From Eledone cirrhosa (taxonomy: Eukaryota): a stretch of DNA of 64,000 nt. Below are positions 11,817 through 53,130 of the stretch, piece after piece. Below the pieces are notes generated by a model that did not search any database, was not told the DNA's origin, and worked only from the letters and a program-made list of their open reading frames with translations. Position numbers and translations under genes: made by a program. The DNA lies in NCBI GenBank assembly GCA_964016885.1, contig OZ024743.1, positions 19,096,001 through 19,160,000 on the forward strand, written 5' to 3'. Numbering within the stretch: the first letter of the stretch is position 1; each line of letters starts with the position of its first letter.

Positions 11817-13684
<1,868 letters not shown>

Positions 13685-22458: not shown

Positions 22459-25400
22459 ACTTTCTTTTTATTTGCCGCCAGGGCATCAAAGAGTGGGACA
22501 AGTACAATGGGGGGGGGGTTTACATAAAAATGCGTCCTCACTAAGGAGGAGGCAATCACAAAATATATATATATAAAATATAAAATATATTAAAAATAAA
22601 TTGAAAAACAAAATCCTCAATAGTGAGGAGGCGCCTTGTGGGTCGCACACCCCCGAAAAAAGTGTTGTGCAACCCTTCTCCTCGGGAGCAGAGAGAGAGG
22701 GTGCTCCCATGATCTTTCATCTTTCTCACCTACAGTCTGATGTAAAGTAAAGGCCCATTCACACAGGCCATTCTCCCCACTTTCACCCATCTTTCATAGA
22801 AATGGCTGGGGTGCAGCACCTCTCTCTCCATCCTGATCCTTCTTCCAAAATGATATCGGAAGAAACGGACCAGTTGTTGGCCAGAGAGAAAGGTGTCTGA
22901 CCTCATTCCTTTCAGACGCGTCCACCATACAACCTCTTTCGCCATGGCTACTACGAACAGAAACACCGCCTCTCCTTCGTTTTTGAAGAGGGGAGGCGGC
23001 TTGATCAATACAATAGATTCGGTGGTCAACCGGATCGGTCCCACCCTTGACAGCAATTGTTCGACATAGCCCCACAGATCGGCAATGCCCGAGCAGTGTA
23101 CCAATGCATGTGCAACGGTTTCCTCGTCGCACACGCATCTGGGACAGATCTTTTTCGAGGGGTCCCTACCCGGGCGCCCGTGTCTGTAGAGCCTTTCTTG
23201 AACGGGCAGAGCCCCTCGGTAGCACTGCCAGGCCAGGGACCTCTGGAATTTATCCATGGGTCCTCGGCTGAATGTCCTACCGAACAGGTTGGCCAGTTCG
23301 TCTTCAGGCCTAGGGCTTCTCAGAGGGCGTCGCCAAGCCTGCTAACCACCAGCTCTCTATAGAATGACGAGGCGGATTCTGCCGACACCGCTTTCCACAA
23401 TCCCGGTTCCAAGGGGATGCCCTGCAACAACTTCAACTTCCGCAGCAGTGGCTCTAGTGTCATTACATACAGAAGGGAGGAGAGAGGGCACCCTTGTCGG
23501 ATGGACCGCGCTATTTCGAACGGCTCCAAGAGGTAGACGTTCACATTGACCCTGGAGCAGATGCGGCTGCTGTGCATGGCATTGATCCAGTCCCTGAAAA
23601 CGGGTCCGAAGCCTGCCGCCGCTAGCACCGCATCCAGGTAACCATGGTCGACCCTATCGAACGCCTTAGATTGATCCAAGTTTATCAGGGCCCCACCAAA
23701 GCCGGGTTGGTTCCCAACCCTCTATATGATGTATCGCATGAGGTGGAGGTTGTCGTGAATGAACCTGGACGGGATAGCACATGTCTGCGCATCCCCCACC
23801 AGGTTTCCCACGACAAGTGCCAACCTCTTTGCTAGCACCTTGGCCAAAATCTGTAACTCTGTATTTAGCAGAGTTATGGGCCTGAAATTATTTATATCGT
23901 CCCCCTTCTTCTCGTCTTTCCTCACTAGCGTGACTACGCCCTTGGTCACAGCACAGGGAATTCTCCCGTTTTGTTGCCAGTTGCAGTAGACCGCCTCGAG
24001 GAGATCGGGGAACAAGTACGGCATAGCTAGATATAGTTCGTATGGAAGACCATCGAGACCTGGGGATTTGCGTTTGCCGCATTGGCTCAGCACGTCCTCT
24101 ATCTCAGCGACTGAAATCGGCCTCTCGCAGGACTTCGCCTCCCTGTCCGAGAGACGCGGCAGGCCGTCGAGGTATGGACCGAAATCCACTTCCCCAACCG
24201 GCTCCCCGCCCCTTCCGAACAATCTGGCAAAGTGCTTTTGAAAAGCCTCGCACATCTGCTTAGGTTCAAGGATCACACGTCCATCCTGATCTCGCAAAGA
24301 CCGGATAGTGGATCTACTCCCTCTTTTGGCTTCTGTCACGCGGGCCCAGCTAACAGTTTTGGTCCCCTCGTTTCCCAGAGCACGTATTTTGCTTCGGACG
24401 ATGCAGCCTTCGTGTTTTGCGTCGAAGAACTGGCCCAGGGCCGTTCTCGACGCTAGCAGTCTGGCCACGTCGCCGCTTCTAATTGCCTCTTCTACACTAT
24501 CTACCAACTCCCTTTCCTTCCTATTTCAATTTGAGGCTAACTCCTTACTAAATTCTATAGAGACTACTCTCTAATCTCTCTTTTGAGAGATCCCCACCAC
24601 CTGCGGTTGACGATGGTGCCCGTCAACCGCTCCTTAACTAAATTGCTAATCCGGTCCCTGTAAGCCTTACTTGCCGGTAAGGACAAGTTGAGCTTCCAGT
24701 AACCGGGTCCCTGTCTATGCGTTCTGTCAAGGTTGACCATGCAGGTCACTAACTTATGGTCTGAATAGCCAACCATGCGCTTTTTTGGACAACTTAAAAA
24801 GTCCTTATCCTTATTTATAACTAAGAACCTATCTAGGTACGACCTAGATGATCCGCTGCGGTTTGCCCAAGTCCAGGTTGGCGCAGTCGGAAAATCTAGT
24901 CGATATCTATCGGCCAGGTCAAATCGACCGATTAACTCTTTGAGGCTATTACACCCCTCTCTATCGGGAAAGGCCCCTACGTAGTACCAACGTGCATCTA
25001 GGATACCATTCCAGTCCCCCACTAATAGCAAGGTGCAGGACGTCCCTAGAAAAGTCTCCAGACGATGGAAGAAGTCCGGCCTCATGGACCCGAAAGGGCA
25101 GTAGTCGGCTACCAACCTAAACGCTCCGCTTTCAGCACTGCCAAGGTCCAGAACCACTAGTCGACCCTCCGGGTCCAAATGTACCATCTGTGTTGCGAGA
25201 CCCAGATGTTTTTGGAGCAGAACGACAACCCCACCGCCACCTCCGGGCTGACAGAGGGATGCGTGCATCTCAAAGTCATCAAAGGTGGGGGCCAGCTGTC
25301 GCACGTTGCTGATCCGGGCCTCGCAAATATCCATCACATCTATACGTTGTGACCTGAGGTCATTTAGCAGCATTGCTTGCTTCCAAGATGACCCAGGCCA

Positions 25401-25700
25401 CGCGTATTTAGACAGCCTACTATTAGCATAGCCATGTTGGTGGTGAAGAGAAAAGGCACTTACCTCTCTGCGTCCCGTGTATCGGCCTCTTCATCTCCTG
25501 GGGACCAGCTCCACAATTTCCATGGGGGTGTTGGAGGGTATGTTTGATGGGGGTGGTGGTTTCTGGCGGGGTGGGGATGGAGGTGTTTGATGGGAAGGGG
25601 TATCTGGAGGATGGGGATCACTTGGGTAGGGGAGCCTGTGGTGGTGAGGCCTTTGTAGAGGACGCGGTTGATTGGTTTCACGCAGGAATTCCCCACGTCC
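22459..25700 (-). mobile_element. Tx1/L1-clade non-LTR retrotransposon, 5'-truncated, frameshifted and internally deleted
   Basis: ORF2 starts near 25435. APE motifs (LNTRGL, GDWN, SYLDRF, SDH, GPGYWKLN); RT motifs (KSPGLDG, NFRPITLLN, DQSKAFDRV, RQGCPLS); C-terminal CPRC..ETVAHALVHC; AATAAA plus A-rich tail near 22460-22473. Confidence 0.92.
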
Positions 25701-47089: not shown

Positions 47090-47330
47090 ATAATAATGGT
47101 AGTAAATGGAAAATATATCACTATAACATCATAATTTATTTCGTTGTATAGATTTGAGGGATACTGATTTATAGTAAGCTCTCTTCAGACAAAATACAAT
47201 ATTTGATGTATACAATTGTACCTCACCTGAAGAGCGCATACTATCAATTAGTATTCTTGAAATATATATAAGGAAATAAATTATGACGTTATAGTGATAT
47301 ATTTTCCAATTATTACTATTATAATACTCC
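47086..47330 (+). mobile_element. Small pseudo-LTR remnant with inverted ends and a decayed HHR (47222-47275)
   Basis: 47086-47140 is the reverse complement of about 47273-47327; CTGAAGA..atact/agtat..GAAA-tata-TA with a poor stem I. Confidence 0.5.
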
Positions 47331-47411: not shown

Positions 47412-47440
<29 letters not shown>

Positions 47441-47445
<5 letters not shown>

Positions 47446-48544
47446 GAAGAGAGAAGAAACATTTAGATATAATTAGTAATAAAATGTATCATACCTAAAC
47501 TGCTCCTAAATTCCTCGACTACGTAGTTTCGTGGCATAAACAAAAACAATATATCATAAAGATATAGAGTCCCTGCGAGGTCCGCCGACTTATCAAGAGG
47601 ATACCTCATTTTACTAGTCTCAAGAACGCGTCTACACGACGTGAGAAAGAATCCCAAAAGGCGGAGGGGGAGATAGTCACGCGATATAACGGTCGAGAAA
47701 CAGAGCTAAGCCTCTTATAACCACGAGGAAAATACCACGGAGGCGGAGGGGGTATTCATATCGAGGCCGCAGAAGAGGTGGTGAAGAAGGCTAGAAGTAT
47801 GAGTAATGGAAGCTTTCCAGTTGTCCCCACACTTCAAAGATTGCTCGACCAGAGGGAGTTATTAACAATATATTTATATATGTGTATATATTTATATGTA
47901 TATATGTGTGTGTCCGCATGTATCTGTGTGTTTCTAAATATATTGTTAATAACTCCCTCTGGTCGAGCAATCTTTGAAGTGTGGGGACAACTGGAAAGCT
48001 TCCATTACTCATACTTCTAGCCTTCTTCACCACCTCTTCTGCGGCCTCGATATGAATACCCCCTCCGCCTCCTTGGTATTTTCCTCGTGGTTATAAGAGG
48101 CTTAGCTCTGTTTCTCGACCGTTATATCGCGTGACTATCTCCCCCTCCGCCTTTTGGGATTCTTTCTCACGTCGTGTAGACGCGTTCTTGAGACTAGTAA
48201 AATGAGGTATCCTCTTGATAAGTCGGCGGACCTCGCAGGGACTCTATATCTTTATGATATATTGTTTTTGTTTATGCCACGAAACTACGTAGTCGAGGAA
48301 TTTAGGAGCAGTTTAGGTATGATACATTTTATTACTAATTATATCTAAATGTTTCTTCTCTCTTCATAATGTATTTTTAACTCTGATACTGGTTCAGTCT
48401 AGTTTCAACTGAATTGGTCTGTCCCAGTCATTCATTGAGCAACATCGGTGAAGTTGGCACCCTTAACTCACAGTTGGGTGCGGATGCATTCATGTATATA
48501 TGTGTGTGTCCGCATGTATCTGTGTGTTTCTAAATATATTGTTA
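47441..48544. mobile_element. Family M: 435-bp near-perfect inverted arm plus about 1.1 direct 596-bp units
   Basis: 47441-47875 versus 47936-48370 (one mismatch seen). tgtccgcatg recurs at 47911 and 48507. HHR tcctc-TTGATAA-gtcggc..gccac-GAAA-ctacgtag-TC-gagga at 48210-48299 (+) and 47512-47601 (-). Confidence 0.9.
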
Positions 48545-48567
48545 TATATATATATATATATATATAT

Positions 48568-49452
48568 AGTACATTATGAAGAGAGAAGAAACATTAGATA
48601 TAATTAGTAATAAGATATATCATACCTAGCTGCTTCTATAGTCCCCGACTACGTAGTTTCGTGGCATATTATGCACAAACACTAGATCATAGAGATATAG
48701 AAATTTTGTGAGGTTCTGCCGACTTATCAAGGGGATACCTCATTAAGGATTTCAAGACACGGCTGTAATGCGCGAGATAGAATCTCGAAAAGGCGGAGGG
48801 AGGGTCAATCACGTGATACAGCGGTCAAGAAACAGAGCTAAGCCCCTTATGACCCTGAAAAAAATACCACGGAGGCGGAGGGGGTATTCATATCAAAGCC
48901 ATAGAAGAGGTGGTTTGAGGAGGCGATAAGTATGAGTAATGGTAGCTATCCAGCAGTCACTACACTTCAAATGTTACTCGACCAAAGGGAGTTATAAACA
49001 ATATATAGAGAGAAACACACAGATACATGCGGACATATACATATACATGAATATATCCACACATATTCCTGAGTTAGTGGTGCCAACCTCAACCGATGTT
49101 GCTCTATAAATAACTGGCACAAAACAATCCGAATTGATTAGACTGATTCAGTATCAGAGCTATATAGTACATTATGAAGAGAGAAGAAACATTAGATATA
49201 ATTAGTAATAAGATATATCATACCTTGCTGCTTCTATAGTTCCCGACTACGTAGTTTCGTGGCATATTATGCAAAAAAACTAGATCATAGAGATATAGAG
49301 TTTGTGTGAGGTTCTGTCGACTTATCAAGGGGATACCTCGTTAAGGATTTCAAAACGCGTCTGTAATGCGCGAGATAGAATCTCGAAAAGGCGGAGGGAC
49401 CGTCAATCACAGTCAAGAAACAGAGGTATCCCCTTGATAAGTCGGCAGAACC
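48568..49452 (-). mobile_element. Family M sibling: about 1.4 units of 598 bp plus a short terminal inversion
   Basis: acattatgaagagagaag at 48571 and 49169; HHRs at 48642-48735 and 49240-49333; inverted gaggtatccccttgataagtcggcagaacc at about 49423-49452. Confidence 0.88.
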
Positions 49453-49995: not shown

Positions 49996-50724
49996 TAGCT
50001 CTGATTTATCAAAATTATTGAGCCCTCTGCCACTCATATCGGATATTGTTTATCGTTAATTCGTGAGCTGATTTTCCGATACTCGATTATTCTATTATAT
50101 TTAGCTCTAGACCTAGCTATTGACCAGTTAATTTTATTGATCATTTTTTGTCGATGCTATTGACTGATGAATAGCTCCTGTTTATTTTAACATGACTATT
50201 GAGCACTCTGATTCGATATGTGATATTTTGTATTCCTACATGATTTCCACATTACCGAAAATGTTTTCGCTAATATAGAGGTTATCTCCCTTGCTGGGCA
50301 CCATGTGCGTGTCTGGCTAAAGGTCACTTCTTTATTATCGGACGGAACCCGTTGATAAAGCTCTTCCGGTCCACTCCTTCCCTAGAAGTCTTATATATTT
50401 TTATGTGGGCTGATAGTGAACGGATTAAGGAATTGCAGAAACCCAAGAAGCTACATTTAACACCCTTCTAGCGGGTCCGGGTAAGTTTTTTACATTCATT
50501 TAAATTATTGATTTATTGATATTTTATTTGAGTGACCCGAATCTTCCTGGTCTTTTTTTTTCGGCTGCACGGGTGATTTTAGGCATAATCTCTATGTGTT
50601 GGTAATTTAACGATAGTTATAGCTCTGATTTATCCAAATTATTGAGCCCTCTACCACTCATATCGGATATTGTCTATCGTTAATTCGTGAGCTGATTTTC
50701 CGATACTCGATTATTCTATTATAT
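49996..50724 (+). mobile_element. Family D unit of 624 bp, about 1.17 copies, large HHR at 50348-50481
   Basis: 49996-50100 is repeated at 50620-50724. cccg-TTGATAA-..-GAAA-ccc.agaag/cttct.ggg-TC-cggg|taagt. Confidence 0.85.
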
Positions 50725-50739
50725 ATATATATATATATA

Positions 50740-52720
50740 AGATCAGATACAACCTCCTCACGAGGAACAGCAGACTACCCGCCTTCTACCACCTTGTGAA
50801 AACACACAAACAAGGACACGACCTGAAGATCATAACCATCGTATCGAGCGTGGAAGGACCGCTGTACAAAATATCATGGCTCCTAGACAGAATACCCAAA
50901 CCCATACTAGACACCTTGCCGGGACACGTAAACAGCTCCGAGTAGGTGTTTGAGCGTCTGCATCAAATGGATCCCGACACCAGAAAGGCTAACAGATATG
51001 CCTTCAGCCTTGATGTGGTCGCTCTTTACACCTCGGTCCCGGCGCTCCCGGTTGTTGATATACTGATGGAACGCGTCTAATCTACCGACCTACACTGCTT
51101 CGAGCTCACCCCCATGGACATCCACCAACTCGTATCCGTCGTCGTTGACAACACATACTTCAGTTTTCTCAACCAAACATACGGGCAGACCTCGGGGCTA
51201 CCCATGGGCTCAAGCCTGTCACGTGTGCTAGCGATCTCATACATGGACAGCCTCGAGCGCAAGGCACTCACCACCTGTCACCCCAACGCCGTCGCCTTTT
51301 TCTCAAGATACATGGATGACATCCTCATCCTCGCAACTTCCAAGGAGATGGCGAACGGAATCTTTGAGACGGTCAACAACACGGACGAGAACATTGATTT
51401 CAGTGTTGAACACCCCAGCGACAACGGGTCACTTGCCCTCCTCGACTTCCGAATCAACATCACGGAGCAGGGAGGGATCCACACTAACTTCAACCGCAGG
51501 GCTACCTGCAGGGACTTGTTCGTCCACTACAAGTCTGCCCTCCCCAACAGCGCTAAAAGAGGGTACATCACGAACGAGATCACGTGAATTAAAAACAGAT
51601 GCAGCGATCCGGTGAGTGGTGTCACCCGCACCAAGCGATTCCTCAAAGTGCTGAAGACGAACGGGTACCCCTGCCTCACTCACAAACAGAGTAGGAGACA
51701 CCAGACGTAAGAGGCTGAGGAACACCCAAGGCAAGTGCTTCCTTAAAATACCACACATGGGCGAGAATACCACCAACGCTATCCGCAGGGCTATACGGAG
51801 AGAGGGCCTCAACATCTACCTGGCCCTCTCGGGCCCCTGCCTGCGGAGAAACCCGGGAAATCGACTCAACGCGTGTTCCCTCGTAAACTGTCCGATGCGC
51901 CATACGAAATGTTGCTTACGCACATACGTGGCATACAGGGTCGAATGTGACAAGTGCAACGGCTACTATATCGGTAGCACAATCCGGCCGCTACATATCA
52001 GGATAAAGGAGCACATCAACACCAGGGCCTCGTCTCTCCGGAAACACATCATGAAATGCGGAAACAAAGACGGAAGGCTCATTGTCACACTGCTAGCGAC
52101 GGAACGCAACGTCGGCACGCTACGAATCAAGGAAGCACTTTGGATCAAAAGCCTAGGGCCACAAATAAATAACCGATCCGAGAGAAGCGAGATGAGGTGG
52201 TTGGTGTGAACTAACGAGGCACCAACACACGCGCACACACACACACACACAGTGACATTCGAACGGTTGTTTTTGTGTGTGTAACACCGCCACCATCCAC
52301 CGACCTAATTTTTAAAAAAAAAGAAAGGAGACCAGGCAGAATACCACTAATACCAGACGACTATATTACACTGCCAGTACCAAAAACCCAACACAGATAA
52401 ACAGTACAATGGACTAACAGCTAACGGCATCCCACTCCCACAATTAAGAGAACTACTTCGACCTCTGCTTGACCACACCGATTCCACGCGCACGCGCGCT
52501 CTGCAGAATGCCTCAATTAGACACAAACAGCCAACAACAGAAGACACGTTCCATTTTTCTCCGACACATAACCCCCCCCCCAGAAAACAGCCCAGTTGAT
52601 GGATGTGAATACGAAATATAGGGACAATTAAATCCGTCTCAAGGTAACTCTATCTCGTGTTATTATTTTTATTTTTTACGCTCTTTCCTACATTCCTCTA
52701 CACACTTTACATCTCATTCT
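50740..52720 (+). mobile_element. 5'-truncated Penelope-like element (RT plus C-terminal GIY-YIG), degenerate
   Basis: FYHLVKTHK, SLDVVALYTSVP, GLPMGSSLS, RYMDD, AYRVECDKCNGYYIGSTIRPLHIRIKEH, IKEALWI; in-frame stops; decayed HHR-like motif at 52590-52625. Confidence 0.9.
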
Positions 52721-52949
52721 ATATTCCCTTACGTCAAGTGTTATTATTTTTATTTTTACGCTCTTTCCTACGTTCGTATACACACTATACATCACATTCT
52801 ACACTCCCTTACATCTCTCTCTTCACCACCGGATCCTGTTACCCGGAGAATTACCCATCTGCATTGTTGAGGCTTCCAAAACGACCAAAAGATAATAAAT
52901 TCTATTATTCCACAATGCTTCAAGCAGATTTCAATACTCTCATTATATA

Positions 52950-53048
<99 letters not shown>

Positions 53049-53130
53049 CGGAGGAAATGTGGTAAGGAAAAGGAAAAGTGCAGAATTAGCATTCGAAACG
53101 GCTTGAGCTCAGCCGTCGGGGTCCTACTCG

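Follow-up and report, generated by a model that had tools for sequence, protein, structure and literature searches.

How does a repeat without an open reading frame (ORF) of its own come to lie head to head with itself inside a microsatellite, and whose enzymes could have put it there? The question is raised by a 64,000-nt stretch of the Eledone cirrhosa genome (assembly GCA_964016885.1, contig OZ024743.1, positions 19,096,001 to 19,160,000 of the forward strand), hereafter the window, in whose coordinates positions are given below. A preliminary description of this DNA had noticed a fold-back insertion of a repeat (family M) carrying hammerhead ribozyme motifs, next to a diverged relative. 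Positions 47441-48545 are a single, very young head-to-head insertion of this repeat, whose unit is 596 nt long, into a (TA)n microsatellite. We consider it likely that the insertion was made, probably in one event, by the reverse transcriptase (RT) and the GIY-YIG endonuclease (EN) of a Penelope-like element (PLE).

Two separate elements are present at the locus, the young one and an older sibling at about 48569-49410. The young element is framed by the remnants of its target, (TA)n tracts that can be read directly in the sequence at 47412-47440 on the left and, between the young and the old element, at 48546-48568 on the right. On a unit scale in which u1-u596 correspond to 47935-48530 (596 nt), its short (S) arm occupies 47441-47876 on the minus strand, runs from u440 down to u1 with its 3' end outward at 47441, and is 99.5% identical to the unit, with one mismatch to the other arm. 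The long (L) arm, on the plus strand at 47896-48545, is made of u558-596, u1-596 and u1-15, and its 3' end is also outward, at 48545, where ...AAATATATTGTTA gives way directly to (TA)n. A TA/TG-rich filler of 19 nt (47877-47895), outside the match of both arms to the unit, forms the head-to-head junction. The inverted overlap of the arms (47441-47876 versus 47935-48370) is 436 nt long and contains one mismatch (47738 C versus 48073); a repeat search reports 445 nt at 99% for the same arms because the match runs on into the TA-rich flank. The 58 nt separating the overlapping parts are the filler plus unit positions 558-596. Both arms have C at u150 and G at u294, variants absent from all 43 other sampled copies; the sole difference between the arms (u139) is a change in the plus arm only. 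Two private variants found in both arms indicate that these were copied from one template lineage, and the arms are most simply explained as one RNA copied in one event.

In the 3.0-Gb genome, to which the genome-wide counts refer (candidates being first-look matches), the young subfamily has 1215 candidates, of which 40 were scored; their long matches are 95-100% identical, nearly all of them 98-100%, and 34 distinct full units, compared between arrays, show on average 3.3 differences over about 596 positions. With full units this similar, and arms that differ at 1 of 436 positions, the very young age proposed for the insertion stands. The old subfamily has 2374 candidates, and its copies are 91-96% identical to the one in the window. 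The period of the young family is 596 at the window locus and 595 elsewhere, the GC content of the unit is 42%, and its longest stop-to-stop frame has 80 codons; a tblastn search of 60 family loci with the RT and EN of the neighbouring PLE (described below) gave only one weak match, in a flank. Copies are mostly short, at 1-4 units, and fold-backs are frequent among them; arrays reach four full units plus partial units, and in its canonical form a single-arm copy spans about 1.85 units. The median difference between units is 0.5 inside an array and 3 from one array to another, a contrast too small to decide for or against a rolling-circle signature. As a separate observation, one contig of 620 nt, from a run assigned to a different organism, holds 1.04 units at 95-99% likeness, with ends that overlap by about 30 nt, so that other runs, too, contain the family as tandem or circular sequence.

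What do the ends of these copies record? Far from being special to this locus, an inverted arm is carried by 14 of 21 distinct young-family insertions, the other seven having none. Young-family 3' ends lie at two places only: a short end, where ...CUUCAUAAU(GUAU) is followed by (TA)n at u440-444, and a long end, where ...AAAUAUAUUGUUA is followed by (TA)n at about u605-613, the exact position shifting by a few bases; the offset from short to long is 168 nt. Every one of the 18 short and the 15 long ends adjoins the microsatellite, which also forms the 5' flank of single-arm copies in six cases out of seven. All 13 young-family fold-backs with both ends visible, the window copy included, have one short and one long outer end. 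The same pairing is found in 14 of 19 old-family fold-backs, with no short/short and no long/long case, so that short/long ends characterize 27 of 32 fold-backs when both subfamilies are pooled, and two alike are never seen. The inner junctions of the young family vary from locus to locus, which argues that the arms are not simple snap-back hairpins, and the 5' ends of full-length copies mostly cluster at u496-559. No target-site duplication was discernible in the (TA)n at fold-back ends, nor was a poly(A) or other 3' tail present at the copy ends examined.

Such a footprint has already been described for endonuclease-bearing PLEs. Their insertions comprise partial tandems, next to which an inverted copy, truncated at its 5' end, is found so that the 3' ends point outward; an extension is present at one end only, and Naiad and Hydra PLEs show a (TA)n bias without a readable target duplication (Craig et al. 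2021, PMC8557442). The combination found here, namely an inverted arm, a one-sided extension, partial tandems and a (TA)n target, is the published PLE integration pattern, for a process whose mechanism the same source called undefined in 2021. A 5'-truncated PLE (50741-52945, plus strand), in which RVT_1 is followed by a C-terminal GIY-YIG domain, lies 2 kb from the young element and is itself bordered by (TA)n at both ends. For its endonuclease the genome yields 14979 first-look candidates, whose open frames reach 854 aa, and the 3' end of this PLE reads ...CUUCAAUACUCUCUUA followed by (TA)n in 10 of 10 loci. No hammerhead was found in the 3' UTR of this PLE with our own descriptor (30 loci), nor an Rfam hammerhead in its 3' region.

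Repeat search and unit comparison place the older neighbour at 48569-49410 on the minus strand, as a copy of subfamily B with about 1.4 units, a period of 598, two hammerheads and a short-type 3' end at about 48569. At 81% identity to the young element, and with a period of 598 versus 596, it belongs to a diverged sibling subfamily, as the preliminary description had recognized. It is not a tandem partner of the fold-back: its 3' end abuts the same (TA)n tract, so the young element landed in the microsatellite flanking the sibling instead of arising beside it, and the sibling represents an older subfamily that had inserted into this microsatellite earlier and independently. To its right, 32 nt on the plus strand (49418-49449, unit about 265-296) form a short inverted piece of the sibling that ends at neither canonical terminus, so that this arm is truncated or rearranged.

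What, then, is the part of the ribozyme? On the plus strand the motif reads UCCUC / UUGAUAA / GU(C)GGCG...UGCCAC / GAAA / CUACGUAGU / C and, beyond the predicted cut, GAGGA. In the L arm (48210-48299, plus strand, read from the sequence and found by our descriptor), helix I is 5 bp long (48210-48214 with 48295-48299) and leads into the core UUGAUAA (48215-48221); helix II has 6 bp (48222-48228 with 48275-48280), a bulged C near its 5' end (C48224) and a 46-nt insert; GAAA (48281-48284) precedes helix III (48284-48293), a 10-nt palindrome that in a monomer would form 3 bp and a tetraloop, and cleavage is predicted after C17, at 48294. The descriptor also recovers the hammerhead of the S arm (47512-47601, minus strand; stems II/III/I of 6/5/5 pairs, predicted cut after C47517) and that of the sibling (48642-48735, minus strand; stem I CCCC/GGGG, predicted cut after 48647), and fails on the sibling's second one, about 598 nt to the right, which has a C.A mismatch in stem I. 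The core UUGAUAA and the stem III palindrome ACUACGUAGU, which had been reported as shared by the two subfamilies, are indeed found in all three complete copies of the window, together with GAAAC and the GUC before the cut. The core is canonical throughout, except for U3-A8 in place of C3-G8, a substitution seen in every subfamily. Over the whole window the descriptor returns five sites, whereas 60 simulated windows gave 0.37 on average and never more than 2; there is no canonical C3-G8 site among the five.

Sequence variation among copies gives a further view of the motif. In 76 unique sequences drawn from 169 sampled copies, the conserved core is kept (UUGAUAA in 74, GAAAC in 70, U16.1-C17 in 74), and the second pair of stem I, over three subfamilies, is C-G in 40, U-A in 18, U.G in 18 and C.A in none. 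The compensatory change of stem I from CCUC/GAGG to CCCC/GGGG, proposed from the window, is thereby retained, and a third state, CCUC/GGGG, also exists in the genome. An upstream GAGG that might form a competing hairpin remains unchanged while pair 2 varies, so the change at pair 2 tracks stem I. The hammerhead halves are the best-conserved blocks of the unit between subfamilies, with 100% identity at u341-360 and 90% at u281-300, versus 65% inside stem II and 81% overall. The U3-A8 core is not new, since it has already been published for PLE hammerheads as a natural variant and covariation (Cervera and de la Pena 2014, PMC4209133), and the motif is probably a real hammerhead of the PLE type, with self-cleavage predicted. 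Apart from this, a young-family lineage that accounts for 22 of the 169 hammerhead copies sampled has ACUGCGUAGU in stem III instead of the palindrome; it is seen in loci L007-L009, L019 and L025, which are one array on contig C11 with four mutually identical full units.

Two further families, unrelated to the present one, keep U3-A8 and differ at the free position N7 (UUGAAAA and UUGAGAA). The first is seen in a second fold-back lying in (TA)n at 11847-13460, without sequence relationship to family M, which has a compact hammerhead on each strand with the core UUGAAAA and predicted cuts after 13406 (plus strand) and 11897 (minus strand). The second has the core UUGAGAA and GGCUUGAGCUCAGCC as stem III; its complete motif is found at L083:719-802, and the window contains its 3' part alone, at 53060-53130 between two (TA)n tracts.

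How could these pieces fit together? In the mechanism that we propose, a PLE enzyme combining RT and GIY-YIG endonuclease would be supplied in trans, the (TA)n ends of the cut DNA would anneal as primers to two A/U-rich sites of the repeat RNA, DNA synthesis on this RNA would be primed from both ends of the cut, and the two cDNAs would be joined head to head. Where a copy holds two hammerheads in tandem, its transcript would self-cleave after C17 (between GUC and G) and release an RNA of roughly 596 nt, which might circularise as metazoan retrozymes do. The window fold-back has one hammerhead per strand, against two in canonical copies and in the sibling, and with one per strand a unit-length RNA cannot be cut from it. 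The element that had been singled out as the best candidate for a currently active member is thus a product of insertion, and is predicted to be a fresh dead end of an active family, not its source. A bolder idea is suggested by outer ends that are never alike and lie 168 nt apart: a single Penelope complex might hold one structured RNA and prime from both DNA ends, in which case these repeats would record Penelope integration, and elements that target (TA)n in this genome would regularly use a U3-A8 hammerhead as their ribozyme. We offer this extension tentatively, and rather doubt that it holds in full.

Several observations weigh against the proposed reading. The neighbouring abundant PLE (30 loci, the one PLE family tested) shares only low-complexity sequence with the repeat, and the 168-nt offset between short and long ends is to be compared with the 30-40 bp published for PLE tails (PMC8557442). 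In five of the 19 fold-backs of the old family, one end falls outside both canonical sites. Insertion ends lie off the ribozyme site, the 3' ends being 80 or about 250 nt downstream of the cut. Only one base pair of the hammerhead covaries, the remaining stem pairs being invariant between subfamilies; Rfam gives no hammerhead match at its gathering score over the whole window, nor at E<=10 over 3 kb, nor over 141 nt, and its miRNA matches are no more than a reflection of the palindrome and the TA repeats; and the hammerhead stretch folded alone does no better than shuffles (z -0.38). Besides, minimal hammerheads of the PLE type are described as cutting poorly in vitro and are thought to act as dimers (PMC4209133).

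An alternative is that the insertion was as proposed but the hammerhead is a passenger or a weakened relic, an ordinary linear transcript being copied by the PLE enzyme without self-cleavage or circles. As copy ends lie away from the cut site, the copies can be accounted for without cleavage, and the ribozyme may be a passenger in the life cycle. The clustering of 5' ends at u496-559 would be expected if the RNA started at a fixed point or synthesis met a strong stop there, and short stubs occur that extend from the long end to this same zone. Arms that begin at the cut do exist, two of the old family exactly there (L053, L036) and three others 4-9 nt upstream (L056, L010, L029), but five arms are too few and too fuzzy to be read as a cleavage footprint. 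The lack of an Rfam match and the poor cutting of minimal PLE hammerheads point the same way, and Naiads are reported to thrive without canonical hammerheads (PMC8557442). Against a passenger stand the conservation of the hammerhead halves above the rest of the unit in subfamilies only 81% identical, a stem I pairing that survives three states with 0 of 76 sequences mispaired, the retention of U3-A8 in three unrelated families, and the presence of exactly two tandem hammerheads in canonical copies. We regard this alternative as possible, though on balance unlikely.

Could another machinery have made the same structure? The window also holds LINE-type ORFs at 22730-25490 (minus strand), with consecutive Exo_endo_phos, RVT_1 and zf-RVT frames, and a LINE with an apurinic-type endonuclease might act by twin priming. 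L1 twin priming reportedly yields inversions, through two primings at one break, which is the feature it would have in common with the present copies. However, in the L1 case it is said to give non-overlapping segments, whereas the arms here overlap in content, both 3' ends point outward, poly(A) or any other 3' tail is missing, and the target is a microsatellite found on both sides of the copies. Tandem partial units, a single extended end and the (TA)n bias are PLE traits in the published description (PMC8557442), and a LINE origin appears improbable.

An origin at the DNA level, either as a foldback or miniature inverted-repeat transposable element (MITE) or by template-switch duplication of a satellite, would agree with long near-perfect arms, a short spacer and AT-rich surroundings. 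Unlike the arms of such transposons, those of the present family end at different unit positions (in 27 of the 32 fold-backs, and never at the same one), with no discernible target duplication; inner junctions that differ by locus, arms that measure anything from 38 nt up to over 2.4 kb of tandem units, and the seven of 21 insertions without an inverted arm are equally hard to reconcile with a DNA palindrome, which seems very improbable. Palindromes are a known failure mode of assembly, and a chimeric long read could produce one, but the same asymmetric architecture recurs, with different junctions and on several contigs, at 13 further loci of the young family; each arm has a canonical terminus abutting (TA)n, and the arms differ at one base, so that the fold-back is accepted as genuine and an artefact is very improbable.

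A unit-length sense RNA (L003:1750-2344, minus strand) folds at -182.6 kcal/mol versus -143.1 +/- 6 for 100 shuffles (z -6.6, 0 of 100 as good), while the antisense strand gives z -0.6; the minimum free energy (MFE) structure of the whole sense unit forms the helix II described above. It also predicts a long hairpin at 48304-48356 (plus strand), immediately before the short-type 3' end and in a block 90-95% conserved between subfamilies, and it is possible that this hairpin would serve as a recognition element for the reverse transcriptase. The two GGCGGAGGG boxes per unit noted earlier are present and conserved between subfamilies, but on the strand opposite to the hammerhead (47660, 47742, 48792, 48874 and 49390 on the plus strand; 48061 and 48143 on the minus strand); proposed earlier as a possible internal promoter, they match the GC-box consensus only loosely. 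A run of T5 lies at the short end of the young subfamily, and another inside stem II; a reading of the former as a Pol III signal was dropped, as the run is missing in the old subfamily and the second one falls within stem II.

Other repeats surround the locus. To the left of the young element, an inverted repeat at 47090-47325, with 111-nt arms that are 82% complementary and 14 nt apart, lies between two (TA)n tracts; its high summed depth in run contigs marks it as a repeat of its own. Further to the right, direct repeats at 49996-50103 and 50620-50727 are 96% identical and 624 nt apart; as the second continues into (TA)n, the pair probably represents another (TA)n-targeting element.

To what extent is any of this new? 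The repeat adds a member to a kind that is already known and does not amount to a new system, and the single locus is ordinary. Its value lies in the family, with thousands of near-identical ORF-less copies whose termini, junctions and target can be read base by base under a strict end rule, and which thus form a natural data set for PLE integration, as well as a compact substrate for a retrotransposition assay. With this family, the range of retrozyme-like repeats that carry hammerheads comes to include a unit of 596 nt and a U3-A8 core. More speculatively, the 436-bp inverted repeat, if transcribed through, would give a hairpin RNA that could feed small-RNA silencing of the family.

Metazoan non-LTR retrozymes are described as repeats of 150-450 bp that give RNAs of roughly 170-400 nt (Cervera and de la Pena 2020, PMC7229834). 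The present family resembles them in its ORF-less tandem repeats, every unit of which carries a single type I hammerhead, a high copy number, a low GC content (42% here), an RNA predicted to be highly self-paired, and coexisting PLEs. It differs in its 596-nt unit (periods 595-598), outside the range given there; in copies mostly of 1-4 units, many of them fold-backs; and in a hammerhead of the atypical PLE kind with U3-A8, theirs being canonical. That hammerhead is in turn close to the minimal type I hammerheads of PLEs, including the U3-A8 motif of Cercyon in Schistosoma mansoni (PMC4209133), in its helix I (4-5 bp in theirs), the unpaired base near the 5' end of helix II, the long helix II, the small palindromic helix III suggestive of action as a dimer, and the replacement of C3-G8 by U3-A8; it is distinguished by the 46-nt insert in helix II, by a different host animal, and by its place in an ORF-less repeat as opposed to the pLTR of a coding PLE.

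For insertion, the nearest likeness is with endonuclease-bearing PLEs, especially Hydra and Naiad (PMC8557442), with which the family has in common the partial tandems, the inverted 5'-truncated copy, the extension of one end, the (TA)n target and the lack of a discernible duplication; unlike these elements, the repeat has no RT/EN ORF, its extension is 168 nt and not 30-40 bp, and it shows no sequence link to an autonomous family (one abundant PLE family compared). Animal retrozymes have been proposed to be non-autonomous derivatives of PLEs (Li, Clavereau and Pollet, bioRxiv 2026, 10.64898/2026.07.22.740005), and the dependence of such repeats on PLEs is concluded there as it is here. The routes differ, since theirs goes through co-occurrence and pLTR homology in vertebrates, and ours through the insertion footprint, PLE homology not having been found; footprints were apparently not used in that work, in whose available text "inverted" occurs only in a reference title. 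Taken together, the repeat would appear to resemble a metazoan non-LTR retrozyme in the way it works and a PLE in the way it inserts, in line with the 2026 proposal of PLE-derived retrozymes.

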